Made by a program: the position numbers and the translations under genes. Shown here in pieces: positions 9,368-63,116 of a stretch of 64,000 nucleotides of DNA (positions are counted from its first letter, which is position 1; every line of letters starts with the position of its first letter). The DNA comes from an uncultured bacterium (GTDB lineage: Bacteria > Fermentibacterota > Fermentibacteria > Fermentibacterales > Fermentibacteraceae), in contig CAZMAT010000002.1 of assembly GCA_964564435.1 (NCBI GenBank), positions 140,002-204,001 on the forward strand, written 5' to 3'. The notes under the pieces are model-generated. The model did no database searches, was not told the origin of the DNA, and worked only from the letters and a program-made list of their open reading frames with translations.

Positions 9368-9825
9368 ACCGCCTCCTCCGCTTTCGGTGCGGATGGAGGC
9401 GGACCCGGGGATCCCCCTGGAGCGGAGGGATCGTTCCCGCTGTCACGCGGCGCAGTATCCTGGCTTCCGGATCATCCCCTTCCCGGCCTTCCCGCCCATC
9501 CGGGCAGTGGCAGCTATCGGTTCGGGTCCCCGGTCACAGTGGCGCCACCGCGGCGGATTCACACCGCCTTCCTGCACCCGCACGGGCTATTGATCGGGCA
9601 GGGCGGGCCGGCTGTCAAGGCGGGGGCAGGCAGGGGAAGAACACCGATGGACGGGATCAGCTGCAAGCAGCAGGGAGGTCACGGGCCGGCAGCAGTCGGA
9701 GCACGAACATCGAGGGATCAGCGAAGAGTAGACAGGAAGGACTGTTGGTCAGCAGCAAGCGACGAGCGATGAAACATGGATCTACAGGATGGACAGGATC
9801 AGCGGGCATGTCGACGGTCCCATGC

Positions 9826-19565: not shown

Positions 19566-19898
19566 TCAGATGTCGTACCTGACGCTGGTGGCGTCGCCGG
19601 ATATCCAGATCGAGACGGAAGATGCGTCCTCGCACTCCGGGGGGATCGCCAGCGTGTCGGAGACCGAAGTGATCCCGCTGGTGTACGAGATCACGAGCTG
19701 TCCGGAGACCGGACCACGCAGGTCGCGGGAGACGGAAGAGGAGGCCTCCATCGAATCCCATTCGTAAGACGAGCCCGAGAGTTCGACCGAGATGCCGGTG
19801 ATCGGAACGCCGGAATCGTTGGCCACCTCCAGCTTCGGGCCCCCGCACCCGGCCAGGGCAAGGGCTGCTGCAACGGCAGCGATCAGTCTCCCGCGCAT
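19566..19898 (-). CDS. small lipoprotein (110 aa)
   Basis: MRGRLIAAVAAALALAGCGG lipobox. A GGGAGG RBS lies upstream. It is co-directional with and upstream of the activase gene. Confidence 0.5.
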   Translation of the reverse strand: MRGRLIAAVAAALALAGCGGPKLEVANDSGVPITGISVELSGSSYEWDSMEASSSVSRDLRGPVSGQLVISYTSGITSVSDTLAIPPECEDASSVSIWISGDATSVRYDI

Positions 19899-19951
19899 CT
19901 TCCGGACCTCCCGGTTCGGGTGAAGAGCTTCACCGACAGCAATGATCCGAG

Positions 19952-19957
19952 TATAAT
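19952..19957 (+). promoter_or_regulatory. candidate -10 box (TATAAT) in the divergent promoter region between the lipoprotein and AlkP operon
   Basis: A perfect TATAAT sits ~30 nt upstream of the proposed CTG start and ~17 nt upstream of the GAGGAGG RBS (19974..19980). Confidence 0.4.
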
Positions 19958-19985
19958 ACCGGCTACACGAATCGAGGAGGATCGC

Positions 19986-30104: not shown

Positions 30105-30635
30105 ATGAACACTCAGGAGATGTTCGGGGATTTCCACCCGCTAGAGAGCAGTTCCTTCCAGTCCTTCTGCGAGCTCGTCAAGGTGAGCGACGGCGGCGCC
30201 CTGGTCACCCAGGGCGAGCAGTCGACGGACTTCTTCGTGCTGCTGAGGGGCTGTCTGAAGGTGACGGACCAGCGCACGGGCGAGGATTTCGTGCTCGCCC
30301 AGCTGTACGAGGGGGACGTGTTCGGCGAGATGTCGTTCCTCGACGGGAGCCCCAGATCGGCCACGGTCATCTCCGAGGGCGAATCCGAGATACTCCGCAT
30401 GAGCCGCCAGAGCTTCGCCCTCCTCCAGTCCGTCAACCCGTATCTCGGGCTGCTCATCCTGGTTTTCCTCGGGCGCATGATGTCCGGCAGGCTCAGGAGC
30501 GTCGACGAGAAGATGGCGGGGATGGCCAGGGAGCGCGACAACAGAGAGCTCTCCGAGCTCCGCAGGCTCATCTCCGGAATCCGGAGCTCGGTGCGGTCGC
30601 AGGTGGGCGATTCCGGAGAATCGGATCTCCTCTAG
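30105..30635 (+). CDS. cyclic-nucleotide-binding domain protein (no DNA-binding domain)
   Basis: cNMP-binding signature GDVFGEMSFLDGSPRSATV. 176 aa with no HTH. Confidence 0.8.
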   Translation: MNTQEMFGDFHPLESSSFQSFCELVKVSDGGALVTQGEQSTDFFVLLRGCLKVTDQRTGEDFVLAQLYEGDVFGEMSFLDGSPRSATVISEGESEILRMSRQSFALLQSVNPYLGLLILVFLGRMMSGRLRSVDEKMAGMARERDNRELSELRRLISGIRSSVRSQVGDSGESDLL

Positions 30636-30644
30636 AACCGGGGG

Positions 30645-31190
30645 GTGCCAATGTCCGGTGTGAAGAGGGTTTTCCCGCAGCTCAGCGCCTCCGAGGAGGC
30701 CGAGATCCTGTCCGAATGCACAAGGATGGAGGCGGGGGCTGGCACTGCCGTGCTGCGCAAGGGCGAGGGCGGTGGAGACCTGTACATCGTCGAATCCGGG
30801 GTTTTCAAGGTCTACGAGGAAACCGCCGGCGAGGACTTCGTGCTCGCCCTGCTCAACAGGGGCGACGTCTTCGGCGAGCTGTCCTTCCTCGACGGGTCGC
30901 CCAGGTCGGCCTGCGTGAGATGCCAGAACGACGGGAGCCTCCTGAGGTTCGGAAGGCCCGACTTCCCGAAGCTGCTCCTGAAGAACCCGTACACCGCCTC
31001 CAGGCTTCTCTTCAGCCTGGCCTCGATCGTGTCGGCGCGGCTCAGGAAGGCGGACGAGGCTCTCGCTGTCCTCGCCTTCGACGAACCGGACGCGTCGTCC
31101 GACGAGATGCACAGGCTCGCAGCCGAGATGCACCGGGCCGTCCACATGGAGCTTTCCCCGGGCTCCAGCGAAACGGCGCTTGAGTTCTGA
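30645..31190 (+). CDS. cyclic-nucleotide-binding domain protein, paralog
   Basis: GDVFGELSFLDGSPRSACV. 181 aa, 9 nt downstream of its paralog. Confidence 0.8.
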   Translation: MPMSGVKRVFPQLSASEEAEILSECTRMEAGAGTAVLRKGEGGGDLYIVESGVFKVYEETAGEDFVLALLNRGDVFGELSFLDGSPRSACVRCQNDGSLLRFGRPDFPKLLLKNPYTASRLLFSLASIVSARLRKADEALAVLAFDEPDASSDEMHRLAAEMHRAVHMELSPGSSETALEF

Positions 31191-38238: not shown

Positions 38239-38877
38239 TCAGTCTATGTCGCCCAGGTCGACCGACCAGTAGAAACCGGCGGCGTCGATCCAGACCTCCC
38301 ACAGGGTGTAGGTGTCGCCGTCCTCGTCCTGGCAGTAGATGTCGTAGTAGTCGTTCGCGGGGACGTAGAAGGTGTAGGAGTCGCCGGGGACGATGGTGCT
38401 GCTGCCGAGGCGGTCGGAGCCCCAGTCGGACGTGGAGGAGGGGTTGCAGTAGACGTAGAAGATCGTCCAGCTCCCGAGGTCGTTGTAGATGGTCACGGGA
38501 GCGCTGCCGCCGCCGGTGGTGACTCCGGTCTTGTCGTCGATGACCGCGGAGGTGGAGGAGTAGTAGTACTCGCCGAGGTCGTCGAGCGTGACGTACCAGG
38601 ACCAGGTCCCGGAGACGGGCACGTCGTACAGGATGTACTCATCGCCGTCCTCGTCTACCAGCCTGATGTCCCATGTGCCGTTCGTGACCGGGAACTCCCA
38701 TGTCTCGCCGACGCTCATGATCTCGCTGCCGAGCCAGTCGGAGCCCCACTCGTCGGAAGTGGACGGCGAGATGTAGACATAATAGATGTCCCAACTGCCG
38801 GTGTCGTTCGTGATCTCGATGGTGCCGGCTGAGGCAGCCATGCCGAGCACGGCAAGGGCAAACAAGGCTTGCTTCAT
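38239..38877 (-). CDS. secreted tandem-repeat protein (2 x ~95-aa W/D/Y/T-rich repeats), unknown function
   Basis: Signal peptide MKQALFALAVLGMAASA. The two repeats are TIEITNDTGSWDIYYVYISPSTSDEWGSDWLGS... and PVTIYNDLGSWTIFYVYCNPSSTSDWGSDRLGS.... Confidence 0.6.
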   Translation of the reverse strand: MKQALFALAVLGMAASAGTIEITNDTGSWDIYYVYISPSTSDEWGSDWLGSEIMSVGETWEFPVTNGTWDIRLVDEDGDEYILYDVPVSGTWSWYVTLDDLGEYYYSSTSAVIDDKTGVTTGGGSAPVTIYNDLGSWTIFYVYCNPSSTSDWGSDRLGSSTIVPGDSYTFYVPANDYYDIYCQDEDGDTYTLWEVWIDAAGFYWSVDLGDID

Positions 38878-49934: not shown

Positions 49935-50536
49935 TTCCCGTACCTCGCCAGCAGCCGTCTGATGAGCCTCAGATAGCCGGCCACCCCGAACAGGGTCGAT
50001 GCCAGCGCCAGGAACTCGGCGGTTCCGGCGATGGTGGAGTACACGGCCTTTCCCGGAAGGGCTGCCGATCCGGCGGCACTCGCGGCGAGGACGAAGCTCA
50101 GGATCACTACGAGCTTCTCGCTGGTCGGGATGACGACGAGCGGCTTGCCCACGCCCCAGGAGACCACCGTCGTGGCCGCGAGCACCAGCAGGTGGTACCC
50201 CGACAGGGCGGCCGCCGTGATTGTGTCCACCCATCCCGCCCTGGCCATCACAAGCAGGGTCACGGACAGGAATATCTTGTCTGCGACGAAGTCGAGCACC
50301 TTCCCCTCGAAGGACGACCTGCGCAGCCTCCGGGCGGTCCACCCGTCGAGGTAGTCGGTGGCGGCGGCGCCAAGCACGATCCAGAAAAGAGCCAGCGGTT
50401 CGATTCCATAGTATGCCATGGCGCCGACCCAGAATGCGGCCAGCATCCGCAGGCCGGTGACCAGGGCGGGGACGAGGGGCGGCCAGCGCACCTGCTGGGA
50501 ATCCGGCGGGAAGGCCTCAGCGCCCTGTCGCCTCAT
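49931..50536 (-). CDS. CDP-alcohol phosphatidyltransferase
   Basis: DYLDGWTARRLRRSSFEGKVLDFVADKI matches D-G-x2-A-R-x8-G-x3-D-x3-D. About 200 aa with 4-5 TM helices. Confidence 0.8.
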   Translation of the reverse strand: MRRQGAEAFPPDSQQVRWPPLVPALVTGLRMLAAFWVGAMAYYGIEPLALFWIVLGAAATDYLDGWTARRLRRSSFEGKVLDFVADKIFLSVTLLVMARAGWVDTITAAALSGYHLLVLAATTVVSWGVGKPLVVIPTSEKLVVILSFVLAASAAGSAALPGKAVYSTIAGTAEFLALASTLFGVAGYLRLIRRLLARYGK

Positions 50537-51170
50537 CGGCCCTCCTGAAGAACGGATCGATCTCGTCGAGCCAGATGATCCCGTCATGCGGGAAGCTCCC
50601 CGACGGGAAGGCTTCCGAGATGCAGGCCATGTCCACGGTCGAGAGGAACGCTTCGGGATGGAACAGCCCGTCGGGCGGCAGGACCATCCATCCGGCGGCC
50701 AGGACCGCAGCGATGGCCTGGGCCGCATCGTCACCTTCGAGGTCCGGAGGGGGTTCGGGCAGCATGGCGAGATAGGGGTGAAGGGAGTAGCGCCCGTACC
50801 ACGAGGCAGCCATGGCCAGATCGCGCCTGTTGGCCGGGATCCTGGCGCCGCGGCCCTCGAGGCAGGCCGATGCCCTTCCGGGCTCTCCGCCGGCGACCAG
50901 GACCAGCACCAGGGGCATGAGGGCAGTCCTGTCGCCCGCCCTGAGCCTGTCGCGCAGGCGCTCCTCGGCCGCGATGCCCTCCGTGGCTATCTCCGCAGAT
51001 GTCGGCGTGGAATAGGCGGTCGACATGCCGGACAGCGCGTCGAAGCCTCCCTGGTCCATCACGACGATGGAGACGAGGGACGCGGCCGCGGCGGAACCTG
51101 TACCGGGGACCATGCCGGCCCTGAGCTGCCAGGTCGCGGTGTCGGCGGAGGCGCCTGCGCACAGCAGCAT
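50517..51170 (-). CDS. hypothetical secreted protein
   Basis: The start is chosen downstream of tRNA-Gly. The upstream part of the 268-aa ORF is a translated tRNA. Confidence 0.35.
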   Translation of the reverse strand: MLLCAGASADTATWQLRAGMVPGTGSAAAASLVSIVVMDQGGFDALSGMSTAYSTPTSAEIATEGIAAEERLRDRLRAGDRTALMPLVLVLVAGGEPGRASACLEGRGARIPANRRDLAMAASWYGRYSLHPYLAMLPEPPPDLEGDDAAQAIAAVLAAGWMVLPPDGLFHPEAFLSTVDMACISEAFPSGSFPHDGIIWLDEIDPFFRRADEATGR

Positions 51171-51193
51171 GGCGATCAAACCGAAGGGGATCC

Positions 51194-51269
51194 TGGAGCG
51201 GGCAACGGGATTCGAACCCGCGACTTTCAGCATGGGAGGCTGACACTCTACCAACTGAGCTATGCCCGC
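51194..51269 (-). tRNA. tRNA-Gly (anticodon CCC), CCA encoded
   Basis: GCGGGCATAGCTCAGTTGGTAGAGTGTCAGCCTCCCATGCTGAAAGTCGCGGGTTCGAATCCCGTTGCCCGCTCCA; anticodon loop CTCCCAT. Confidence 0.85.
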
Positions 51270-51319
51270 TCCGGACGGGGGAATTGAATAGGCGAAGGAA
51301 CTCCCGGCGTCAAGCCCGT

Positions 51320-52135
51320 TCAAGAGAGGGGCTCCAGGGTTTCACCCTCGTAGACGGGCCTGGCTTCACCCTCGAGCCACCAGCCTGCATCATCCATGCC
51401 GACTTCGAGAGGAGATCCTCCCGGAGGATGCACCGTGCAGGGCAGGGCGACACGCCCGTCGCGAAGACCCGCGAAAACCGCGGCGACCGCTCCCGTGCCG
51501 CAGGCCAGGGTCTCGCCCTCCACTCCCCTCTCCCATGTCCTGATCCGCATCGTTCCGGGCGCCTCGACGCATGCGAAGTCCACGTTCGCTCCGGCAGGCC
51601 CGGTTTCGGGAGCCCGCCTCAGGGCCGCGGCGGAGGACTCGAACAGGCCGTCAGTGAGATCATCCCTGAAGATCACGAGGTGGGGCACCCCAGTGTCCTC
51701 GAGGGATGCCTCCAGGATGGCCGCCACTCCGCCGGGTCCCGGAGCGTCGAGCGACAGACTCGCGGAGAGAGTGACCGGGGCGGTGAACCAGAGCCTCACC
51801 GTCCCGCCCGGCCTCACTTCGGCACGGTGCGTCCCGGCGTCGCTCTCGAAAGTCTGCACGGGCCCGGCGGCGCCCCTCATGACGGCGAAACGGGCGATGC
51901 AGCGGCCTCCATTCCCGCACATGGAGGCCCGGCCACCGTCGCTGTTGTAGTAGACCATCCGGTAGTCGGCGGTGCGTGACCCCCTGAGTTCGAGCAGGCC
52001 GTCGGCCCCTATCGAGAGCGCCCGCCTGCAGAGCCCTGCGATACGGGGCTGCGTCAGGAAGGGGTCGAGGGAGCGGTCCATGTTGTCCACGGCGATGAAA
52101 TCGTTGCCTGCGCCCGTGAGCTTCGTGAACTTCAT
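51320..52135 (-). CDS. dapF: diaminopimelate epimerase
   Basis: FTKLTGAGNDFI...MCGNGGRC motifs. Confidence 0.88.
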   Translation of the reverse strand: MKFTKLTGAGNDFIAVDNMDRSLDPFLTQPRIAGLCRRALSIGADGLLELRGSRTADYRMVYYNSDGGRASMCGNGGRCIARFAVMRGAAGPVQTFESDAGTHRAEVRPGGTVRLWFTAPVTLSASLSLDAPGPGGVAAILEASLEDTGVPHLVIFRDDLTDGLFESSAAALRRAPETGPAGANVDFACVEAPGTMRIRTWERGVEGETLACGTGAVAAVFAGLRDGRVALPCTVHPPGGSPLEVGMDDAGWWLEGEARPVYEGETLEPLS

Positions 52136-54357
52136 TCCATACCCCGCGCGGCGAGCCAGAGCAGATCGGCCGCGTTCCCCGATCCGGCGAGAGCCGGATC
52201 CTCCTCCAGGGCCGCCTTCACCTCCGACGCAGCCTCTTCCTCCATGCCTGCGGCGAGATAGAGCCTGGCGAGATCGAGCCTAAGCTCGGGATCGGGCCCG
52301 AATGCCGACAGATAGGCGTCGAAGTCGGCTGCTATCCCTTCGATGGGATACAGCCCGTCGAGATGGAGCCCGACGAGTTCCTGCATGATGCCGGTGGCTG
52401 CGTCCAGGTCGCTGCCGTCGTCGCATACAAGCACGAGCGCGGCGGAGAGCAGTTCAGGCGACCTGTTGCCCCGCCCGGCGAGGGCCAGGGAGCGGGCGGT
52501 CTCCATGGGGTAGGACAGCGCCTCCGCGGCCTTCGGATATTCTCCGAAGAGATCCGTGAACCTTGCGTCGAAGAGGAGCCCGGAGCGGGCCGGGGATGTC
52601 GCGGACGACCCTGACGGGAGGGAGAAGACCCTCAGCGAGGGGCCCTGGAACACCAGGCGGAGATCCGACAGGCCTTCCGGTTCGTACTGCATCAGGATGG
52701 CCGCGGAATTCCCCGGCGGGGATGTCAGCCCCGCCAGGTAGAGCAGGCCCGCCGGACCCTGGTCGAGGAGGAAGTCGGCCTGATGGACCACATACTCGGA
52801 CCCGGTCCTCCGCATGAACGCAGTCAGGCTGTCCTCGGGCTGGAAGATCCGTACCGCGAACTCCTCGATGTTCCTCCGGTTGGAGGCGTTCTCGAAGAAG
52901 GTGTGCGTCACCACCGGCCTCCCGGCGTACGCCGACAGGAACCCGGAGATATGCCAGTAGGACAGGAATGCCTCGTCGGGATCGGTGGAGGAATCGGCCC
53001 ACACGATCAGGTCCGAGAGCTCCTCCTCGCCGAGCAGGGAGGCCTGCTGTCCGAAATGGAGCCCGGCGCCCTCCAGAATGCCTGAATAGGGGATCACGAA
53101 GACCGACTGAAGCGCCAGGATCGCCCCGAACACGGGATACCTCCACCGCGTCCTAAGGGTCTCGACGGCGGGTGCGAGAAGGACTGGGGCGAGGAGCACG
53201 TGGAGCCTGTCCATCATCATGTATGCAGCGAGTGCCGCGGGAACCGCCCAGCGCAGCAGCGACGGCCCCCTCTGCCAGAGCTTGCGGGCGCCGAAGAGGG
53301 CGAAGACGATCAGCGGGCCGAAAAGGAGCAGTATCTCCCCGACTGGAGGGGTCTCGTACCCTCCCACCCAGAACAGCCTGGCATCAGGCGTGAGCTGGAG
53401 GGGATCACCGGGGTGCATGAAGAGGAACCTGAACTTGGCCAGGATCATGGCCCCGACGTGCGCCGTGGCGTCGTTGAACCCGGACAGGGCGACCATCGCG
53501 GATGCAGCCGCCGCGAGCACGGGCAGTGCGGTCACCCTGGCGGCCGTGGAGACGAGGAGGGCGAAGGCCACGACGGATGCGGGCGACAGGATGGCTCCCT
53601 CGGCGCGCATGTGCGGGATGAGCAGCGCGGAAGCTATCTGCGCGGCTGCCGGCAGGGCCACGGCGTGAAGGGGGAGCTTCCTCCCGATGTGGAGGACGAG
53701 GATGTAGAAGAGGACCGCCGCGCACACGAAGCCCGACGCCTTCCACGATGCCGCGGCAGCCGACAGAAGGATGGCCGAGACTATGGAGGGGGCCAGGCTG
53801 GCCCGGGACGAGGCAGCCCTCGTCGACTTCTCGACGGACCAGCAGAGGAAGAGGATGATGGGGACGGCGACGGTCTCCCTGTAGAACGACTCCCCCCTTG
53901 CCCGGAGCATCGCCGGTAGCAGGAAACCGTATGCGAGCGCGGCCATCGCCGCCCGACTCGCGCCCAGGCCGGCCTCCCGGAACCACAGCAGTATGGCGAT
54001 CATTCCCAGAAGCGGGAATGCGATGCAGAACACCCTGAGGAAGTCCTGGAAGTCAGTGCCGGGGAAGATGGCGCGGTGGAGCCCTCCGGCGATGTACTCC
54101 TCGAAGATGGAGTTCTCGGAGGTGAGCATTCCCGACGGGTGCATCACCAGAGTGTCGAGCGCGGGGATCGCCCAGCTTTCGGACACCATCGAGGCATATC
54201 GGTACGACTGCGTGGTCTCGCCCTGCATCCGGGGCGGAGGGGGGAGTATGTCCGACGAGAACCACGACCTGAGAAGGAAGGCTGCCAGCAGGGCCGCCAC
54301 CGTCAGTATGGGAAGAGAGAGCGCCCTCCCGAGCGGATGGTCACGACAGGCGGGCAT
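52132..54357 (-). CDS. polytopic membrane glycosyltransferase, GT-C superfamily (ArnT/PMT/STT3-like), with large C-terminal soluble domain
   Basis: 741 aa. About 11 TM helices in the first ~430 aa, then a helical/TPR-like C-terminus. Family assignment is by architecture only. Confidence 0.5.
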   Translation of the reverse strand: MPACRDHPLGRALSLPILTVAALLAAFLLRSWFSSDILPPPPRMQGETTQSYRYASMVSESWAIPALDTLVMHPSGMLTSENSIFEEYIAGGLHRAIFPGTDFQDFLRVFCIAFPLLGMIAILLWFREAGLGASRAAMAALAYGFLLPAMLRARGESFYRETVAVPIILFLCWSVEKSTRAASSRASLAPSIVSAILLSAAAASWKASGFVCAAVLFYILVLHIGRKLPLHAVALPAAAQIASALLIPHMRAEGAILSPASVVAFALLVSTAARVTALPVLAAAASAMVALSGFNDATAHVGAMILAKFRFLFMHPGDPLQLTPDARLFWVGGYETPPVGEILLLFGPLIVFALFGARKLWQRGPSLLRWAVPAALAAYMMMDRLHVLLAPVLLAPAVETLRTRWRYPVFGAILALQSVFVIPYSGILEGAGLHFGQQASLLGEEELSDLIVWADSSTDPDEAFLSYWHISGFLSAYAGRPVVTHTFFENASNRRNIEEFAVRIFQPEDSLTAFMRRTGSEYVVHQADFLLDQGPAGLLYLAGLTSPPGNSAAILMQYEPEGLSDLRLVFQGPSLRVFSLPSGSSATSPARSGLLFDARFTDLFGEYPKAAEALSYPMETARSLALAGRGNRSPELLSAALVLVCDDGSDLDAATGIMQELVGLHLDGLYPIEGIAADFDAYLSAFGPDPELRLDLARLYLAAGMEEEAASEVKAALEEDPALAGSGNAADLLWLAARGME

Positions 54358-54919
54358 GGCGCCGCGCCATCATAGCCGCAATGAGCTTGAGGGTCTCGGC
54401 CGGCCCGCCACCTCCGAGGGCCACGGCTTCGACCACGGGCCAGCCGTGCCTGTTCAGGAGCCTGTCCATCATGTCGACGGGGGCTATGCCCGGGAGGTCC
54501 CTCTTGTTGTACTGGAGGACGACCGGGATCATGGAGAGGTTGAGGCTGAAGCTCTGGAGGTTCTGCTCGAGGTCGTCCAGGGTGTCGACATTGGCGTCCA
54601 TGCGTTCCATCTGGCTGTCCGCGACGAAGACGAGACCGTCCAGCCCGTCGAGTATCACTCTCCTGCTGAGGGCGTAGTATGCCTGGCCGGGTACGGAGTA
54701 GAGGTGGAGCCTCACGTTCGCGCCCTTCACCCATGCGAAGTCGACCGGGAGGAAGTCGAAGAACACGGTTCTCTCGCCGCGGGTGCAGAGGGTCACCAGC
54801 CTGCCCCTGTTCTCCGGGGCGATCAGGTCGCGGATCCGTCTGAGATTGGTCGTCTTGCCGGAGAGCCCCGGGCCGTAGAAGACGATCTTGTAGGCTACCT
54901 CGCTGCCGGATCTGTGCAT
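54341..54919 (-). CDS. mglA: MglA-like Ras-family small GTPase (paralog 1)
   Basis: YKIVFYGPGLSGKTTNL...RTVFFDFLP...LHLYSVPGQ...VFVADSQ...QYNKRDLP. Collinear with M. xanthus MglA over ~190 aa. Its 3' end overlaps the GT-C gene start by 17 nt. Confidence 0.8.
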   Translation of the reverse strand: MHRSGSEVAYKIVFYGPGLSGKTTNLRRIRDLIAPENRGRLVTLCTRGERTVFFDFLPVDFAWVKGANVRLHLYSVPGQAYYALSRRVILDGLDGLVFVADSQMERMDANVDTLDDLEQNLQSFSLNLSMIPVVLQYNKRDLPGIAPVDMMDRLLNRHGWPVVEAVALGGGGPAETLKLIAAMMARRHARLS

Positions 54920-55030
54920 TCGAGCTCCCGCGGCTTCATGGCCGACTGACCGGACAGAAACTACCGATTGCCGGCCCCCGGTGCAAGTCCCGGCGCATCA
55001 GGACCACTCCATCCGCCGCTCGGCGGGTCT

Positions 55031-57964
55031 TCAGAGGGCTGGCGCGGACATCCCGCGGGCGTATGCAGCGGGGTCGGCCAGCATCCTTCCCAGAGTCTCC
55101 TCCGTGGCATCCGTCCTGGCGAGGGCCGCATAGCACAGGGCATGCTCGCCGAGGCGCGCGCACTCCCAGGCCAGGATCCCGGGGGACGTCCTGACCGACT
55201 CGAGTGTGAACCACTCCGCCCTGGCCTCCGCGACTGCCGGATCATCCGCGATCGAAGCGGCGAAGCCGGACAGGAGGGATCCCGCTCCGGGCTCCTCCAG
55301 CGCCGCCGAGTAGTACGCTCCGCACGCGTAGGCCGAACCGGCCTCCCCGGCTGCGAGGAACGAGATCATCGCGTCCAGGGCGTCGCCGACGCGAGCGGTG
55401 TCGCCCGCCTGAACAATCGTCGAGACGGCGCTGTTCTGGAGGTCGAACCTGTCCATGCGGTCCGTGGTCTCCAGATAGGAATCCATCTCGGATCTCAGGA
55501 AGGCGATCGTCGGATCGCCCGGGTGGGTCTCCTCGAAGCCCCGCAGCTCGTTCCATGCCCCTATGTGGTTCCCGAAGTGGAGGTCCACCTCCACCTGCAG
55601 CCAGACGTTGGCAGCCGTGCCGGGCTGGAGCGAGTCGACCACCCTCTCGAGCTGGCTCTCCCTGTCGTAATCCATGGCCACCTGCCCGAGGAGGACGGCG
55701 GTCTGTGAGAGCCTGGAGTCCGAACGGGCGGACGCGAAGCCGGCCAGGCGGTCCGCGGCCGAGAGGATGTACGACGCGGCGGAATCGCATCCCTGGATGC
55801 CATCGACGAGCCTTGCCGCAAGAAGGGCGTGCGTGGGGAGGAACTGCATCCATTCCGAAGGCATGGCCACGAAGAGGGACTCGGCTCGTGCGAGGGCGAT
55901 CCCGGCGCTGTCCGCCGAACCTCCGTCGTAGTGGGCGTCGACGAGCCTGTGGTAGGCCAGCACGTAGTTCCTGGCAAGCAGCACTGCCTGGTCGTCCTTG
56001 AAGATGCCGGGATCGTCCAGACCCTCGAAACGGTACGAATCCATCAGGCTCCAGCTCCGGCCCACGTCCACCATGCCGGTGCCGGGCTCGTCACCTACCC
56101 TGAAGGCGATCCCCTCCATGATCAGGTAGGGTTCGACGTAGATCCTGCTGTCCTCGGCGACGGTTCCTGCCAGATAGATGTCGCGTCCGTGGATGTCCCT
56201 GCGCGCCACCATCGAAAGCATCACGAGGTCCTGCATCCCGATCGAGCCCTGGACCCCGTAGGACTCCCCCGGCAGCGCGAGCGCGAAGTCGCCGCGCCGG
56301 ATCGCCCATGGCCAGGCCTGGGGGAACACGGATCGGAGAATCCCGCTGTCGGTCTCCGAGAGCAGAGGCATTCCGTCCTGCGTGACATGGAAGAAGTGCG
56401 GCCCCCAGATGAACACGGGGCGCATCGAGTCCACCAGGCCGAGATCCCCGAAGGGGATGAGCGCAGGGTCGCGGTCGAGGAGCTGGTACAGGTACCAGTC
56501 CGTGTTCATCAGGCTGAGGTTGCTGACGATGACGTCCCTCCTCACCCCGAGGACGGACTGCGCGAACCAGAGGGGGAAGGTGTCGTTGTCGCCGTTCGTT
56601 ATGAGCACGGCCCCCTCGGAGCACGATTCGAGGAGGTTGATGCCGTAGTCCCGCGCCACTACATCCCGGGAGCGGTCGCACATGAAGTAGTTCCCCGCCA
56701 GGCTGGCGACGGGCAGGAGCATCACGGCCCATGCGGCCTCGTCCCTGCGCGTGGCCGTCCTCAGGAAGGCACCTGCGCCGAACGCCGCGAAGACCGCGAA
56801 GAGGGCGAAGGAATCCGCATAGAAGTAGTCCCTCTCGCGCACCTCTCCTGTGGAGGAGGCGATCGGACCGGTCTTGAAATTGAGGTAGAAGATGAAGAAC
56901 GCGCTGGCCATCAGGAAGATAGTGCCGACATAGAGCAGGATGCGGCGGTTCCGCCGCCAGAGCAGCACGCACCCCCAGAGGGCCGAGATGGTGATTGCGA
57001 ACCTGATCGCGAAGAACAGCGGTGTACCCGCGGCGCCCAGCATCCTGTCCCAGGACTGCGGGAGGCCGGACTGCCATGAGAGATATCTGAAGTACTGGGC
57101 GATCTGCTCGGGCACCGGGCCCTTCCTGTCGAAGACGGAGACCTGGCCGTACTGCTCCCTTGCGAGCGCCGATCTGAAGGCGGGCCAGTCAGAGGGGTCG
57201 GTCTCGTTGATCTCGGGCCTCTGGACGGCCCTCAGGGGCATGTAGAGGTGCACGCTGAAGGCCAGGACCATCAGGCCCAGGGCTGTCGCCAGGAATCGGG
57301 GGCTCCTCCAGAGGGTCGACCTGCCCTTTGCCGCCGACAGGGCGTAGATCACGGCGATGCCGGGCACGGCTATGAGGGCCGCCAGATGCACTCCGACGGC
57401 CATGGTTAGGAGATAGAGGACGAGATAGAGCTGCCTGTCGGCCGGGCGCAACTCCTCCGTCCGCACGATCCAGATGTCGAAGACCCAGATGGCTGTCACC
57501 GCGATGCACTCCGAGATGGCGTAGGTCTCCATCGCGTTGTTGTTCTGCCATACCGTGAAGCTGAAACCGGCGAGCAGGGCCGCTGCAACGGACACCGGCC
57601 TGTAGAGGGATGGCGGAAGCCCCATCCTGACGGACCAGCGCTGGGTGAGCCTGGCCAGGAGAGCCATCGAGACGGCTCCGGCGATCACGCACATGAGGTT
57701 CGTCCTGGTGGCGATGTCGGGGATGAACCCGAACAGCAGGGTGGAGAACCTGCCCAGGAGGACGAAGAGCGGGACGCATGGCGGGTGCGGTATCCCGGCG
57801 ATCCAGGAGCAGGCGATGTACTCGCCGCTGTCCCAGAAGCTGACGGTCCTGGCCATGGTCAGCAGATAGACCAGGCCGACGATGATCCCGGCCGCCGCAG
57901 CGAACCAGCGGTCGGTCGGAACCGTCCTGTGAACGGGATCCGTGTGGCCTCCGCCCTGACTCAT
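55031..57964 (-). CDS. DUF2723/TMEM260-like GT-C fold membrane protein with large C-terminal domain
   Basis: 977 aa. The N-terminal multi-TM region has a WDSGEY (DE-like) motif in the first loop. The C-terminal ~450 aa is soluble and helical. ATGA overlap with xerD. Confidence 0.55.
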   Translation of the reverse strand: MSQGGGHTDPVHRTVPTDRWFAAAAGIIVGLVYLLTMARTVSFWDSGEYIACSWIAGIPHPPCVPLFVLLGRFSTLLFGFIPDIATRTNLMCVIAGAVSMALLARLTQRWSVRMGLPPSLYRPVSVAAALLAGFSFTVWQNNNAMETYAISECIAVTAIWVFDIWIVRTEELRPADRQLYLVLYLLTMAVGVHLAALIAVPGIAVIYALSAAKGRSTLWRSPRFLATALGLMVLAFSVHLYMPLRAVQRPEINETDPSDWPAFRSALAREQYGQVSVFDRKGPVPEQIAQYFRYLSWQSGLPQSWDRMLGAAGTPLFFAIRFAITISALWGCVLLWRRNRRILLYVGTIFLMASAFFIFYLNFKTGPIASSTGEVRERDYFYADSFALFAVFAAFGAGAFLRTATRRDEAAWAVMLLPVASLAGNYFMCDRSRDVVARDYGINLLESCSEGAVLITNGDNDTFPLWFAQSVLGVRRDVIVSNLSLMNTDWYLYQLLDRDPALIPFGDLGLVDSMRPVFIWGPHFFHVTQDGMPLLSETDSGILRSVFPQAWPWAIRRGDFALALPGESYGVQGSIGMQDLVMLSMVARRDIHGRDIYLAGTVAEDSRIYVEPYLIMEGIAFRVGDEPGTGMVDVGRSWSLMDSYRFEGLDDPGIFKDDQAVLLARNYVLAYHRLVDAHYDGGSADSAGIALARAESLFVAMPSEWMQFLPTHALLAARLVDGIQGCDSAASYILSAADRLAGFASARSDSRLSQTAVLLGQVAMDYDRESQLERVVDSLQPGTAANVWLQVEVDLHFGNHIGAWNELRGFEETHPGDPTIAFLRSEMDSYLETTDRMDRFDLQNSAVSTIVQAGDTARVGDALDAMISFLAAGEAGSAYACGAYYSAALEEPGAGSLLSGFAASIADDPAVAEARAEWFTLESVRTSPGILAWECARLGEHALCYAALARTDATEETLGRMLADPAAYARGMSAPAL

Positions 57965-58869
57965 CCCTCGTCCTCTCCTCTGGGGTGCGCCCTTCTGTAG
58001 ACTTCCCTGAGCCTGTCCCCGGTAAGGTGTGTGTATATCTGAGTCGTGGAGAGGCTGGCATGCCCCAGCATCTCCTGCACCGCCCTCAGGTCAGCCCCGT
58101 TGTCGAGTAGGTGGGTGGCGAAGCTGTGCCTGAAGGTGTGAGGGGTCGCACCCAGCGTCCTGGATGCGCCGCAGAGCCCTCTGGCGACTATCCTCCTTAT
58201 GTCCCTGGGATCGAGCCTCCTGCCGTTCCTGCTCACGAAGAGCCAGGGCGCCGAGGGGTCCCTCCTGGTGAACGACGGCCTTACGGACAGCCAGGAAGAT
58301 ATGACTGCGACCGACATTTCCGCCACAGGCACGATCCTGTCCCTTCCCCCCTTGCCGGAGACTATCCGCAGCATGCAGCGCTCGAGGTCGAGATCCTCGA
58401 GCCTTGCGGCTGAAGCCTCCGAGACCCTTGCGCCCGAGCCGTACAGGAGCTCCACGACCGCCCTGTCCCTCATGCCCGCCGCCGTGGATGTGTCGTAGGA
58501 CTCGAGTATGGACATCACCTCCGAGACACCCAGGAATCCCGGCAGCCTGCGCGGGGCCTTCGGCATCGGCAGGCGCGAGGCCTGCGAACCCACCGACCCG
58601 CCGCCGAGTTCGAGCCAGCCCTCGAGGGCCCTGAGAGCGGAGATCTCGCGGGAGACCGACCTCGGGGAGAGCCCGCGCTCCGATTCGCCCCTCACGAACG
58701 CTCTGAGTGTATCCGAATCGAACCTCGGGGTTCCTTCGCAGAAGTCGAGGAACTTGCGGAGATCCGACATGTACGAGGATGCCGTCCGGACGGACAGGCC
58801 CCTGGTGCCGGTGAGCCAGGAGGAGAAGGCTCCTAGGAGTTCCCGGCCGGCTTCCGGCAGCTCGGACAC
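57961..58869 (-). CDS. xerD: tyrosine recombinase XerC/XerD family
   Basis: R...HxxR...Y catalytic set (ARVSE..., HTFRHSFATHLL, LGHASLSTTQIYTH). GTG start chosen by alignment; ATG 58911 is an alternative. The 5' end overlaps the topA 3' end by 37 nt. Confidence 0.8.
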   Translation of the reverse strand: MSELPEAGRELLGAFSSWLTGTRGLSVRTASSYMSDLRKFLDFCEGTPRFDSDTLRAFVRGESERGLSPRSVSREISALRALEGWLELGGGSVGSQASRLPMPKAPRRLPGFLGVSEVMSILESYDTSTAAGMRDRAVVELLYGSGARVSEASAARLEDLDLERCMLRIVSGKGGRDRIVPVAEMSVAVISSWLSVRPSFTRRDPSAPWLFVSRNGRRLDPRDIRRIVARGLCGASRTLGATPHTFRHSFATHLLDNGADLRAVQEMLGHASLSTTQIYTHLTGDRLREVYRRAHPRGEDEG

Positions 58870-61019
58870 ATCAGCCCCTTCGCGGTCTCCTCGAGGTACG
58901 GGAAGCCGCATCTCTCGCAGTTGCGAGCCACGGGCTTCCTCCACGAGGCGTGCCTGCACTCGGGGTAGCGGCTGCAGGAATAGAAGATACGCCCTTTCTT
59001 CGATCTGCGCTCGACGAGCTCGCCGCTGCATCCCTCCTCGGGGCAGGCCACACCGGTCGGGGCCGGTTCGGTGTGACGGCAATCCACCCCGGAGCAGCCC
59101 AGGTACCTTCCGAACCTGCCCGTCCGGAACACGAGCGGGGAGCCGCATTCAGGGCATTTCCTCCCGCTGTCGACCGCCGTTTCGGCCGACTTCCTGAACC
59201 TGCACGAGGGATAGTCCGAGCAGGAGAGGTAGCTGCCGAACCTGCCGGGCTTGAGGAGCAGAGGCGAACCGCACTGGGGGCACTTCTCGCCGGTCTGGCG
59301 CGAGAGCCCGCTCCGCACCCGCCCGAGGTTCTCGACGGCCGACTTGAGGGACTGCTCGAGGGGCTCCTGGAGCCGTGAGACAGCCTCTTCGTAGCTCGTG
59401 CCGCCGGAAGCCACGCTGTCGAGCATCTCCTCCATGGACGCAGTGAAGGATGTCTCGAAGATGGCAGGGAAGAGCTCCACGAGGAGCCGCACGGTCGCAG
59501 TGCCGAGCTCGGTGGGCCTGAGCCTCTTCTCGCTGAGCACCACGTAGCTCCTCTTCCTGATGGTGTCTATGATGCTCACATAGGTCGACGGGCGGCCTAT
59601 CCCGAGCTTCTTCATCTCGGCCACCAGCCCTGCCTCCGTGAACCTGGACGGAGGCTTGGTGAAGCACTGCTCGGCCGTCACGTCGAGGAGCCCGGCCCGG
59701 CCTTCGGCGAGGGAGCCGGGCATCGGCGACTCGATCGAAGCCTGGCCGGGGTCTATCGTGAGGAATCCTCTCGATCTAAGCGCTTCTCCCGTAGCCCGGA
59801 ACTCGTAGACGCCTCCCGTGAACGTCACCGCAGTGCGGTCGACGATGGCGTCGGCGGCCTGGGATGCTGTGAAGCGCCTCCAGATCAGGCCGTAGAGCCT
59901 GAGATGCTGGTCCGGTATCCTGCCTTTAAGCATCTCCGGGGTCCTGGCGGGATCGGTCGGCCTTATGGCCTCGTGCGCGTCCTGCGAGCCTGAAGAACTC
60001 CTGAATCTCCTCGGCGAGGCAGGGAGCATCCCGGGACCGAAGGCGGCCTCCAGGAATTCCCTGGCGGCCAGCTGCGCCTCCGGGGCTATCCTGACCGAAT
60101 CGGTCCTCATGTACGTGATCAGGCCCGAGTGCTCTCCGCCGATGTCCATGCCCTCGTAAAGCTCCTGGGCCAGGGACATGGTCCTGGAGGGAGACAGCCC
60201 GAGCGTGCTGGACGCGCTCTGCTGGAGGGTGCTCGTGATGAACGGAGGCAGCGGCCTGAGGGTGGCCTCCTTGCGCTCGATCGAGGACAGCATCCACGAT
60301 TCGGCCCGGATCGCCGGGAGGAGCCTGTCGACCTCCTCCTTCGATCCTGGTGCGTGCCTGTCGCCGTCGGCCCGCTTCCCCGCGATCCGGACGAGCGTGG
60401 TGGAGACATCCTCCCCTCCCTGCCCGAAGCGCGCCTTCACGGGCCAGTACTCCACGGGGACGAAGGAGGCGATCTGATCCTCCCTCTCCTGCACGAGCCT
60501 CAGCGCGACGGACTGGACCCTGCCTGCGCTGAGCCCCGAGCTTATGGCACGCCAGAGGTAGGGGCTGATCCTGTATCCCACCAGGCGGTCCATCACGCGC
60601 CTTGCCTGCTGGGCATCGACGAGGTCCATGTCGATCCCGCCGGCCTTCTTGAGCGAACCCAGTACGGCGTCCTTCGTTATCTCGTTGAACTTCATCCTCT
60701 TGAACTTCACGCCATCCCTCTTCAGTAGCTCGGAGAGGTGCCAGCAGATGGCCTCGCCCTCCCTGTCGGGGTCGGCTGCGAGATAGATGGTGTCGTACTT
60801 CTTCGCGATCCTCCTCAGGTCGTCGATCGTCGACCTCTTCTCAGGCAGGATCGTGTACTGGGGCTTGAAGCCGGAATCCGTGGAAACGCCCAGGCGCTGC
60901 CTGGGCAGGTCGCGGACATGGCCCATGGATGCGACGATCTCGAAGTCTCCGCCGAGGTATCCCCTGAGCGTCCGGGCCTTGGCGGGGGATTCTATTATGA
61001 CGAGGCTTCCCGCGCTCAT
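58833..61019 (-). CDS. topA: DNA topoisomerase I with C-terminal zinc-ribbon repeats
   Basis: TOPRIM N-terminus LVIIESPAKART. The active-site region (...YMRTDS...) and three C4 zinc ribbons (CPQCGSPL..., CPECGSPL..., CERCGFPY...) are present. The long ORF is trimmed to the Met giving 728 aa. Confidence 0.88.
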   Translation of the reverse strand: MSAGSLVIIESPAKARTLRGYLGGDFEIVASMGHVRDLPRQRLGVSTDSGFKPQYTILPEKRSTIDDLRRIAKKYDTIYLAADPDREGEAICWHLSELLKRDGVKFKRMKFNEITKDAVLGSLKKAGGIDMDLVDAQQARRVMDRLVGYRISPYLWRAISSGLSAGRVQSVALRLVQEREDQIASFVPVEYWPVKARFGQGGEDVSTTLVRIAGKRADGDRHAPGSKEEVDRLLPAIRAESWMLSSIERKEATLRPLPPFITSTLQQSASSTLGLSPSRTMSLAQELYEGMDIGGEHSGLITYMRTDSVRIAPEAQLAAREFLEAAFGPGMLPASPRRFRSSSGSQDAHEAIRPTDPARTPEMLKGRIPDQHLRLYGLIWRRFTASQAADAIVDRTAVTFTGGVYEFRATGEALRSRGFLTIDPGQASIESPMPGSLAEGRAGLLDVTAEQCFTKPPSRFTEAGLVAEMKKLGIGRPSTYVSIIDTIRKRSYVVLSEKRLRPTELGTATVRLLVELFPAIFETSFTASMEEMLDSVASGGTSYEEAVSRLQEPLEQSLKSAVENLGRVRSGLSRQTGEKCPQCGSPLLLKPGRFGSYLSCSDYPSCRFRKSAETAVDSGRKCPECGSPLVFRTGRFGRYLGCSGVDCRHTEPAPTGVACPEEGCSGELVERRSKKGRIFYSCSRYPECRHASWRKPVARNCERCGFPYLEETAKGLMCPSCRKPAGNS

Positions 61020-61066: not shown

Positions 61067-62428
61067 TCAGTAGCGGGCCATCCAGTCCTGCAGGGGACCC
61101 GAGAGGATGCTCCAGACCTCCTGGTTCGTGGTCCCGGCGCAGTTCTGGAAGTCGACCGGGCCCATGCAGGCCGACACCGCCGGGAAGCTCGCCCTGACGA
61201 AGGACACCGTCCTCACCGGGTAGTACTCGCTCTCGCTGTAGTAGAACACGAGTTCGTCGACGGGTCCCTCGCCCAGCCATGCCGTCAGCGCCCTGAGGAG
61301 CGCGTACCTGTAGGTGTCCTCCACCGGGTGCAGTATGGTCACCGCGGCGACGACCGTGCTGTCGGGCATCCTGAAGACCGCGAACCTGTCCAGGGTGATC
61401 GGGATCGAAGCTGCGATCCTGGCCAGGTCGCCTTCGAGCATCTCCCCGGCTTCGGCCATGACATCGATCCCGGACGGCGCCTGGGTCTCGAGGGGCACGG
61501 CCGGAGCGTCCGTTATGGAATCGGCTCCCGGGGGGAGCGGAAGGCCGGAAAGGGATGACAGGATGTCCTCGTCGCCGGGATTGTCCGGACCCTGGATGGC
61601 CGTCGAATCGGGCGTCAGGGCCAGCGTGTCCGCAGGAATGGTGTCGGGAGGCGCCACTGATGTGGAATCTGCCGGTTCCGCATCCGGGGGTGCGGCGTGG
61701 AACAGCCCGAGCGGGTCGAGGAGGTAGAAAGCCGCGAGAAGTCCCAGAACGGCCACTCCCGCCGCGACGTACGCGATGTTCCTGGATCCGCCCCTGCCCT
61801 GCGACGCCGGTGCAGCCTGCATGGTCTGGTCGGAGCCATGCCTGGACTGGGGTCTGGACGTGGCCGTGCGCGCGAGGGGCGCATCCACGACCTTGCCGTC
61901 CGCGGCGCACTTCTGGCAGACATGGGCGATCCTGTCGAAGCAGTCGCGGCACGTCAGCTCGGCGCAGGAGCGGCATGGCGCCAGCTTCTCCCCTCCCGTG
62001 GGGGTCCTGCCGCATACGTGGCAGCGCTCGATGGACAGGACCTCCTCGCTGGCGGAGGTGACCGAAAGCTTCTCCTCGTGCTTGACGGGGGGTGGAGGGG
62101 TGTGGGAGGCCGAATCATCCAGCTCCCCGAAATCCTCTTCCTCCTCCTGGACCCGGGGCGGCTCCATGGGAGCCTCCTCCTGCTGGTCCTCGACGGTCTC
62201 CATCCTCGGGAGCAGGTCGACGAAGGGATACAGCCTGTTCTGTATGACTCTGGCCCGGCCCATCGGCACGGCCTCCAGCAGGACCAGCGGGGCCTTGTCG
62301 ACGGATGACCTTGCTTCCTCGCGGGTCATGTGCAGCTCGGACACGAGGAGTTCCAGGACGCGCTGCTTCTCCTCCTCCCTGCCGAGCCGGACGAGGAGGA
62401 GATCGACGAGAGCTTCCGAGAGGTCCAT
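61067..62428 (-). CDS. hypothetical membrane protein with cytoplasmic zinc-ribbon and periplasmic/extracytoplasmic C-terminal domain
   Basis: 453 aa. N-terminal ~70-aa helical domain, an acidic linker, a C4 zinc ribbon (CHVCGR...CRSC...CRDC...CQKC), one TM helix, and a C-terminal ~200-aa domain. Confidence 0.45.
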   Translation of the reverse strand: MDLSEALVDLLLVRLGREEEKQRVLELLVSELHMTREEARSSVDKAPLVLLEAVPMGRARVIQNRLYPFVDLLPRMETVEDQQEEAPMEPPRVQEEEEDFGELDDSASHTPPPPVKHEEKLSVTSASEEVLSIERCHVCGRTPTGGEKLAPCRSCAELTCRDCFDRIAHVCQKCAADGKVVDAPLARTATSRPQSRHGSDQTMQAAPASQGRGGSRNIAYVAAGVAVLGLLAAFYLLDPLGLFHAAPPDAEPADSTSVAPPDTIPADTLALTPDSTAIQGPDNPGDEDILSSLSGLPLPPGADSITDAPAVPLETQAPSGIDVMAEAGEMLEGDLARIAASIPITLDRFAVFRMPDSTVVAAVTILHPVEDTYRYALLRALTAWLGEGPVDELVFYYSESEYYPVRTVSFVRASFPAVSACMGPVDFQNCAGTTNQEVWSILSGPLQDWMARY

Positions 62429-62513
62429 CAGACCATCCCCCTGTCTTCTTCGTATCCGCCTTGCGGATCGACGGGAGGCACCGGGCCCGGATCCGGGATC
62501 GCCGGGTCGTCCG

Positions 62514-63116
62514 TCATGCCGTTCCCTCGTCGGCCTCGAACTGCCGGTGCAGCCTGGTGATTACCATGCGGCTCACCTTGCGAAGGGTCTCGAAGACACC
62601 GATACCCTTTGCCGCCACGGCTTCGACGATGGGTATGCGGCTCAGCCCGAGAGTCTCGCTGATCTCCTCCACCGAGGCTATGTCGGGCAGATCGCGCTTG
62701 TTGCACTGGAGGACGAGGCTGACGCCCTTCCTCTTCTGGTTCTTGAGATTGTCCCTGAGATCCCTGAGCGAGGCGATGTTAGCCTCCATCCTGTCCCTCT
62801 GGGAGTCGGCGACGAATACGATGCCGTCTACGCCCTGGAGGATCAGCCTCCTGCTGTCGGAGTACATGGCCTGCCCCGGGACGCTGTAGAGATGGAGCCT
62901 GATCTTGAACCCGTTGATCGTTCCGGTATCGAGGGGGAGGAAGTCGAAGAACAGGGTCCTCTCGTTGCCGGCGGCGAGGGAGATGAGCTTGCCCCTGTTG
63001 TCGGCGGGAACCTCACCGTGGATGACCTTGACGTTGGTCGTCTTGCCGGAGAGCCCCGGACCGCAGTAGACGATCTTGCAGTCGATCTCGCGGGCGCTGT
63101 AGCTGACGGTCGCCAA
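62514..63116 (-). CDS. mglA: MglA-like Ras-family small GTPase (paralog 2, closest to canonical MglA)
   Basis: CKIVYCGPGLSGKTTNV...RTLFFDFLPLD...IRLHLYSVPGQ...VFVADSQRDRMEAN...QCNKRDLP...GIGVFETL. Very close to Myxococcus/Thermus MglA. Confidence 0.85.
   Translation of the reverse strand: MATVSYSAREIDCKIVYCGPGLSGKTTNVKVIHGEVPADNRGKLISLAAGNERTLFFDFLPLDTGTINGFKIRLHLYSVPGQAMYSDSRRLILQGVDGIVFVADSQRDRMEANIASLRDLRDNLKNQKRKGVSLVLQCNKRDLPDIASVEEISETLGLSRIPIVEAVAAKGIGVFETLRKVSRMVITRLHRQFEADEGTA

Follow-up and report, generated by a model that had tools for sequence, protein, structure and literature searches.

MglA-1, a small GTPase of the MglA family, and a 741-residue membrane glycosyltransferase of the GT-C type are encoded by overlapping genes in a 64,000-nucleotide (nt) stretch of DNA from an uncultured bacterium of the phylum Fermentibacterota (contig CAZMAT010000002.1; the whole stretch is referred to as the window). 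The original prediction had read this gene arrangement as a sign of coupling between a polarity GTPase and envelope glycosylation, a reading that comparison of the locus across the phylum did not bear out. We consider it fairly probable that the adjacency of mglA-1 and the GT-C gene reflects inherited operon architecture and not a dedicated GTPase-glycosyltransferase module. Regulatory coupling between the two is possible but unsupported. The locus serves as a worked example that perfect adjacency and a start/stop overlap are no sign of shared function where the whole neighbourhood is frozen.

All genes of the locus lie on the minus strand. A TMEM260-like (DUF2723) GT-C membrane glycosyltransferase of 977 amino acids (55031..57964) is followed, after a 111-nt spacer (54920..55030) that in most relatives holds hslV and hslU, by mglA-1 (54341..54919), which encodes a Group-1-type MglA GTPase of 192 amino acids. 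The 3' end of mglA-1 overlaps the 5' end of the 741-codon GT-C gene (52132..54357) by 17 nt (54341..54357), and the stop codon of the latter overlaps by 4 nt the start of dapF (51320..52135), the diaminopimelate epimerase gene (Pfam PF01678, E 3e-37). The coordinates, spacer and overlap first proposed for the three open reading frames (ORFs) all hold exactly. The three ORFs show a coding-type G+C distribution over codon positions, with third-position values of 0.85-0.89 in a window of 65-70% G+C (genome ~67%), and by the same measure the opposite-strand ORFs over this stretch are antisense shadows. The ATG of the GT-C gene is made from the His-Ala codons CAT-GCC of the MglA-1 tail. This start is supported by the equal length of orthologue N-termini and by its recurrence: in 42 of the 62 loci described below, the ATG gives an overlap with mglA-1 of 17 or 20 nt. 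The 17-nt and 4-nt overlaps suggest that mglA-1, the GT-C gene and dapF are translationally linked and hence co-expressed, and from their spacing the genes of the locus are probably co-expressed. A scan of the spacer gave no sigma-70-like promoter and terminator-like matches at or below chance, a scan that is uninformative for this phylum. The protein-coding run from the TMEM260-like gene to dapF ends at a tRNA-Gly(CCC) gene directly downstream of dapF (51194..51269; ARAGORN; Rfam RF00005, 71.7 bits).

Gene order was compared in a sample of one genome per GTDB species, comprising 62 loci with a relative of the 741-residue protein, 61 of them from Fermentibacterota. Among these 61, mglA-1 lies directly upstream of the GT-C gene in every locus with upstream sequence; conservation of this adjacency in relatives had been proposed as a test of the original prediction, and neither its absence from relatives nor an adjacent mglB, the two outcomes named as refuting the prediction, was observed. 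The two genes overlap in 42 of the 62 loci, by 17 nt in 34 of these and otherwise by 20 nt (median distance -17), and are instead separated by +27 to +76 nt in Aegiribacteria-type loci. The 4-nt overlap between the GT-C gene and dapF is kept more consistently than the overlap with mglA-1; these two genes overlap in 55 of the 57 loci measured (median -4, a few of the overlaps inflated by start calling). Moreover, 14 marker genes are collinear and co-directional in 61 of 62 loci, forming a block of more than 20 kb. They include the gene for a 453-residue protein, topA, xerC, the TMEM260-like gene, hslV, hslU, mglA-1, the GT-C gene, dapF and genes for a CDP-alcohol phosphatidyltransferase, a GT9 glycosyltransferase, polA and a sulfatase. 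As there has been almost no rearrangement across the phylum, no single junction in the block is informative. The same 4-nt overlaps join functionally unrelated genes in the dapF-yigA-xerC region of E. coli. In the window, the upstream housekeeping backbone of the block consists of topA (58833..61019) and a xerC-type recombinase gene (57961..58869), both supported by Pfam and by gene calls in an identical contig (L070), and the start of the TMEM260-like gene overlaps the xerC stop by 4 nt.

The placement of the GTPase gene between two glycosyltransferase genes, also part of the original prediction, holds in the Fermentibacter genus only (the window and loci L005 and L006), where the TMEM260-like gene adjoins mglA-1. 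Elsewhere hslV and hslU intervene, as seen in 51 to 55 related loci, with a median gap of +33 nt from hslU to mglA-1 (55 loci). Since hslVU is found neither at that place nor anywhere else in the 64 kb, the Fermentibacter genus appears to have lost or moved it.

We looked for linkage of the GTPase and the GT-C gene that survives broken gene order. Within the phylum the sample held no locus with rearranged gene order, 61 of the 62 loci being fully collinear, and outside it the linkage did not recur in the seven loci sampled. None of these seven DPY19-like relatives with an upstream flank has a GTPase neighbour or an MglA-like sequence anywhere in the locus. Their neighbours encode an amino-acid permease, GH94 enzymes (twice), uracil phosphoribosyltransferase, NIF3, a NUDIX protein and one unidentified gene product. 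In two unrelated metagenomic contigs from outside Fermentibacterota (L068 and L072), the DPY19-like GT-C gene follows a GH94 gene of the cellobiose/chitobiose phosphorylase-like type, and in L068 it is in turn followed by genes for a PMT_2 GT-C and a tetratricopeptide repeat (TPR) protein. The GH94 neighbours hint that outside the phylum the DPY19-like family belongs to glycan-related clusters.

The surface of the 741-residue protein was also considered as a possible site for GTPase docking. According to the STT3/DPY19 topology and the structural model described below, its cytoplasmic face consists of an N-terminus of ~6 residues and six loops of 4-7 residues. These loops are the least conserved parts of the protein, with column identities of 0.16-0.48 versus 0.75-0.86 in the periplasmic loops. 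With such short and variable loops, it is not evident where a GTPase showing 65-96% conservation could find a conserved surface to dock on.

Judged from its conserved motifs, the product of mglA-1 is an MglA GTPase of the Group 1 type in which strong purifying selection has preserved every catalytic residue. It is 100% identical to a protein named from a metagenome-assembled genome of Candidatus Fermentibacter (phylum formerly called Hyd24-12), the genus to which the window belongs, and a complete Fermentibacteria chromosome (OY970370.1) encodes a 96%-identical MglA-1. Group 1 is defined by the P-loop, an intrinsic arginine beside the G2 threonine, the catalytic glutamine and NKRD (PMC4316618). 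MglA-1 was matched in the PDB to the MglA structures of Myxococcus xanthus and Thermus thermophilus (5ymx, 6h17, 3t12) at E ~1e-54 and ~50% identity, in agreement with its initial assignment. Its P-loop reads GPGLSGKTT, its G3 motif SVPGQ and its G4 motif NKRD, and the intrinsic arginine beside the G2 threonine lies in ERT, aligned with DRT (R53) of M. xanthus. Like these homologues, it has the bacterial insertion that separates G1 from G2. Besides the G3 motif, it differs from them in a shorter N-terminus, a GGxGP loop near the C-terminal end and the presence of two paralogues 8 kb apart with no mglB within ~74 kb. All 109 database clusters of the MglA-1 clade keep both the RT pair and NKRD, and 108 of them keep SVPGQ and 108 the P-loop. 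Clade members are 65-100% identical to MglA-1, with a sharp fall to 52-55% for other MglAs; canonical MglAs are 64-82% identical among themselves. Clade members, where named, all come from Fermentibacterota. The SVPGQ motif, in place of the TVPGQ of Group 1, is a conservative Thr to Ser change shared with MglA-2 that retains the V, P, G and catalytic Q. MglA-1 is a new lineage-specific MglA of the Group 1 type whose G3 carries Ser and whose gene has no mglB as a neighbour. With these residues in place, the protein would be an active GTP switch. Our literature searches returned no report on MglA in Fermentibacterota and none linking MglA to GT-C enzymes.

The second paralogue, which the original prediction had also recognized, was confirmed by sequence comparison. 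MglA-2 (62514..63116, minus strand; 200 amino acids) shares 51% identity with MglA-1 and 54-58% with canonical MglAs, and its gene sits between tatA and the gene for the 453-residue membrane protein. The latter follows mglA-2 (the pair spans 61067-63116, minus strand). Its product has a cytoplasmic N-terminal part with three CxxC pairs, a single transmembrane (TM) helix at residues 216-245 and a C-terminal domain. The pair also occurs in L005, L006, L001 and L070, and in L003 the homologue of the 453-residue gene follows tatA without mglA-2. Considering the ~215-residue region that precedes its TM helix, the 453-residue protein is no less plausible than the GT-C protein as a partner for a GTPase. 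A single-sequence AlphaFold2 (AF2) model of it reached a mean predicted local distance difference test score (pLDDT) of 45 and was unusable.

MglA proteins normally work with the GTPase-activating protein (GAP) MglB, a Roadblock/LC7 protein. No Roadblock/LC7 domain was detected when practically all plausible genes of the window were scanned with Pfam, consistent with the lack of a Roadblock ORF claimed earlier. A tblastn search with a genuine MglB (locus L004) gave a best E of 0.8 in the window and nothing in related loci, and no Robl_LC7 gene was found in the 10 kb past the window end that L070 provides, so that ~74 kb of the genome was covered in all. By comparison, the gene for the nearest MglA outside the clade (P0110, in L004) is directly preceded by a Robl_LC7 gene. 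The possibility that the 453-residue protein hides a Roadblock GAP in its C-terminal domain was provisionally rejected, since this domain follows a single TM helix and has no Roadblock match. Orphan MglAs are already documented: 59 of 449 mglA genes have no mglB within four genes, including those of M. xanthus SofG and Bdellovibrio MglA (PMC4316618). These two are likewise MglA-family GTPases without a neighbouring or cognate MglB (PMC4316618). They differ in having other gene neighbours and in that experiments have established what they do, namely position the ATPases of type IV pili or serve in prey invasion. Fermentibacterota have an MglA paralogue of their own that is catalytically intact, bears the SVPGQ signature and, over the ~74 kb covered, lacks an mglB.

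The 741-residue protein had been predicted to be a GT-C enzyme, an assignment that the modelled fold supports and refines to the DPY19/STT3 class. An AF2 model built with 35 homologues (pLDDT 90.4, predicted TM-score 0.87) was compared with known structures by Foldseek. It matched STT3, DPY19, AglB and PglB with probability 1.00 and TM-scores of 0.44-0.66 (STT3 at E 7e-14; CeDPY19 at TM-scores of 0.60/0.66), and ArnT was more distant. The best matches were the oligosaccharyltransferases STT3, PglB and AglB (E 7e-14 to 3e-8). The model comprises a GT-C transmembrane domain with 13 predicted TM helices and long extracytoplasmic loops EL1 and EL5 (residues 1-429; 53071..54357), an alpha/beta "dome" (residues 430-590; 52588..53070) and C-terminal TPR-like helical repeats (residues 597-741; 52135..52569; Pfam TPR_19, E 9e-5). 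In the model EL1, EL2, EL5, the dome and the TPR domain would all face the periplasm.

Sequence searches reached the same class by way of distant relatives. Against Pfam, the protein gave a Dpy19 (PF10034) match over residues 380-527 (E 2e-4) that, at 19.9 bits, falls below the gathering threshold of 27.2. Neither a Fermentibacterota profile, which retrieved only TPRs (designed TPR proteins) from the PDB, nor a phmmer search with the relative P0254 matched any GT-C structure. Only a profile of relatives from outside Fermentibacterota reached DPY19 and STT3 in the PDB (24 sequences; CeDPY19 at E 4.5e-24, STT3 at E 1e-13 to 4e-16). An exhaustive profile search placed the Fermentibacterota proteins as one branch of a family with 890 representative clusters (E<=1e-3). 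Among 50 more distant members, 47 match Pfam Dpy19 (E<=1e-3, best 2e-25), and canonical C-terminal TPRs are present in 35 of 50 relatives outside the phylum. The protein is therefore a new member of an uncharacterised bacterial DPY19/STT3-class family, best described as a GT-C of this class with a periplasmic dome and a TPR tail. It belongs to a large branch of ~890 representative clusters, mostly TPR-tailed, in which the key arginines of DPY19 appear to be kept. To our knowledge, relatives of the C-mannosyltransferases are usually discussed only in eukaryotes, and a term search of a 2026 review of these enzymes gave no mention of prokaryotic or archaeal homologues.

Conserved residues cluster in the periplasmic loops: RMQGE46TTQSYRY in EL1, R151-A-R-G-E-S-F-Y-R159-E160 in EL2, EL5, and R383 between TM11 and TM12. 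The profile of relatives, together with shared motifs, equates R151 with Arg211 of CeDPY19, R159-E160 with R219-E220, R383 with Arg471 and F487-E488 with Tyr578-Glu579; in the dome, RPVVTHTFFEN aligns with RPIVNHPHYEH. In CeDPY19 the leaving phosphate is stabilised by Arg211 and Arg471, and Glu71 has been proposed as the catalytic base (PMC10154233). Judging from motif position only, the likely counterpart of Glu71 is E46 (RMQGETTQSYRY), an invariant EL1 residue. As modelled, the protein is a GT-C of the STT3/DPY19 structural class; both arginines that bind phosphate appear to be retained, and EL1 has an invariant acidic residue. The EL1 pattern of an acidic residue, four residues and then YR is the same as in yeast Stt3 (DPWFNYR). 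The likeness to the C-mannosyltransferase CeDPY19 (PDB 7zlg/7zli) extends from the 13-TM GT-C fold and C-terminal dome to the predicted equivalents of R211, R219-E220, R471 and E579. However, identity is only ~13%, Y578 is replaced by Phe, and a periplasmic TPR tail is added. Unlike that of CeDPY19, the donor of a bacterial protein would be a bacterial polyprenyl phosphate sugar.

In STT3, PglB and AglB, the WWDYG motif binds the +2 Ser/Thr of the sequon. At its place after TM13, the 741-residue family has (Y/F)WHISG (YWHISG in the window protein), which lacks the Asp; W467, S470 and G471 are invariant and H468 nearly so. With WWDYG replaced in this way, N-glycosylation of N-x-S/T sequons is unlikely and the protein is not a usual N-oligosaccharyltransferase. 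A protein acceptor is plausible. The order of a GT-C membrane domain followed by extracytoplasmic TPR repeats is shared with TMTC1-4 (PMC7801869), which, however, belong to the PMT-like GT-C clan and not to the STT3/DPY19 structural class.

The 977-codon gene encodes a TMEM260-like GT-C, an ordinary DUF2723 member, as first annotated. The protein matched Pfam PF11028 at E 2e-29 (103 bits versus a cut-off of 24.2) and human TMEM260, a protein O-mannosyltransferase (PDB 9rql), at E 2.8e-16, in an alignment that covers residues 27-152 and 321-502 and brings the DSGE and HPP..PLF motifs into register. It consists of an N-terminal multi-TM domain with an FWDSGEY loop motif and a long C-terminal domain, and is ~250 residues longer than TMEM260 at the C-terminus. 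Its orthologues also match TMEM260_2 (PF28495). The literature searched contained no characterised bacterial DUF2723/TMEM260-like member.

Taken together, we propose that the locus is part of a long, co-directional and tightly packed gene array kept across Fermentibacterota, of the order tatA-(mglA-2)-p453-topA-xerC-TMEM260-like-(hslV-hslU)-mglA-1-GT-C-dapF-tRNAGly-...-polA. In this inherited super-operon, mglA-1, the GT-C gene and dapF would be co-transcribed, as their spacing suggests. By homology with MglA, SofG and Bdellovibrio MglA, the most likely role of MglA-1 is that of a GTP/GDP switch in the cytoplasm by which polar machinery is positioned, and its GAP or guanine nucleotide exchange factor, if any, would be encoded elsewhere or absent. 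Fermentibacterota are described as rod-shaped, diderm and non-flagellated, with type IV pilus genes (PMC5030696). No motility system other than type IV pili has been reported for the phylum. From their fold and conserved residues, the two GT-Cs most likely use polyprenyl-phosphate sugars as donors and glycosylate acceptors in the periplasm or envelope, which are probably proteins recognised via the TPR or C-terminal domains.

Several observations weigh against attributing the adjacency to inheritance of the array. A functional pair would show the same picture, namely an adjacency that is perfect over 61 species and the 17-nt overlap in 34 of 62 loci. The MglA-1 clade and the 741-residue subfamily are both confined to the phylum, which is compatible with co-origin. 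In addition, mglA-1, the GT-C gene and the TMEM260-like gene are non-housekeeping genes inserted in an ancient topA-xerC-hslVU/dapF backbone. The role proposed for MglA-1 in pilus polarity, for its part, is extrapolated from its homologues.

The same observations can be read as traces of a dedicated module, in which an MglA-1 switch co-translated with the DPY19-like GT-C, and perhaps with the TMEM260-like enzyme, sets where or when the enzyme acts, for example in polar glycosylation of pilins or envelope proteins. The unbroken adjacency and frequent overlap fit such a module, as do the phylum restriction of both lineages, the joining of all three genes by the loss of hslVU in the Fermentibacter genus and the high conservation of MglA-1 within its clade at ~50% identity to canonical MglAs. 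We nevertheless regard it as distinctly unlikely. The entire block is equally conserved, which leaves the mglA-1/GT-C junction uninformative; dapF is overlapped by the GT-C gene even more consistently; and homologues outside the phylum lack a GTPase neighbour altogether. What is conserved on the surface of the GT-C faces the periplasm by prediction, whereas the stretches on the cytoplasmic side are short and least conserved, and our literature searches showed no GT-C enzyme under the control of a small GTPase. That MglA-1 regulates the GT-C directly is improbable. We give little credence to the most specific form of this proposal, that MglA-1 is a dedicated, MglB-independent switch translationally coupled to a DPY19/STT3-like protein glycosyltransferase whose placement or activity it controls, possibly together with the TMEM260-like enzyme. 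Were it true, a GT-C enzyme would for the first time be seen under the control of a Ras-superfamily GTPase. Cell polarity and the glycosylation of envelope proteins would then be connected across a whole phylum, and a polarity GTPase would be linked to periplasmic glycosylation in a way that has no precedent.

The local context would be irrelevant if one or both paralogues were regulated in the canonical way by MglB, RomR or RomX encoded elsewhere in the genome. Both MglA-1 and MglA-2 retain the intrinsic Arg and the Gln that MglB positions in Group-1 MglAs, and 328 orphan MglB genes were counted in a published survey (PMC4316618); the nearest MglA outside the clade, as noted, has mglB immediately upstream. 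Yet the ~74 kb searched contains no Roadblock gene, the SVPGQ motif of both paralogues marks a divergent lineage, and a distal MglB would be atypical, since 390 of 449 MglAs have mglB within four genes (PMC4316618). A distal GAP is on balance unlikely. A functional tie of MglA-1 to the AAA+ protease HslVU upstream, instead of to the GT-C, would account for the 55 loci in which mglA-1 follows hslU at ~33 nt. In Bacillus, the same position after xerC-hslV-hslU is filled by codY, which encodes a GTP-sensing regulator. This tie is very hard to credit, as the Fermentibacter genus keeps mglA-1 and the GT-C gene but not hslVU at this place. Inherited operon architecture thus appears to be the most suitable explanation for the adjacency.

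Several other features of the window were observed. The 268-residue ORF listed at 50517-51323 (minus strand) reads through the tRNA-Gly(CCC) gene, and its N-terminus, AGIAQLVECQ..AGSNPV, is translated tRNA. The true gene downstream of the tRNA encodes at most ~224 amino acids, is conserved in relatives and has no Pfam match. A TonB-dependent receptor gene (7409-9367, minus strand) has a cobalamin riboswitch close upstream (9453-9574, minus strand; Rfam RF00174, 77.7 bits). The type I phosphodiesterase/nucleotide pyrophosphatase family is represented by two genes in tandem at 19602-23935 (plus strand), with an overlap of 4 nt between them; the first was missed by simple ORF calling, its open frame extending upstream, antisense to the neighbouring gene. 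At 30105-31190 (plus strand), two small tandem paralogous genes encode a 176-residue protein with a cyclic-nucleotide-binding domain (Pfam) and a 181-residue protein similar to it by sequence. Finally, a 212-residue secreted-looking protein encoded at 38239-38877 (minus strand), with very high third-position G+C and no Pfam match, contains two internal W/D/Y-rich repeats (…GSWDIYYVY…SDEWGSDWLGS…).

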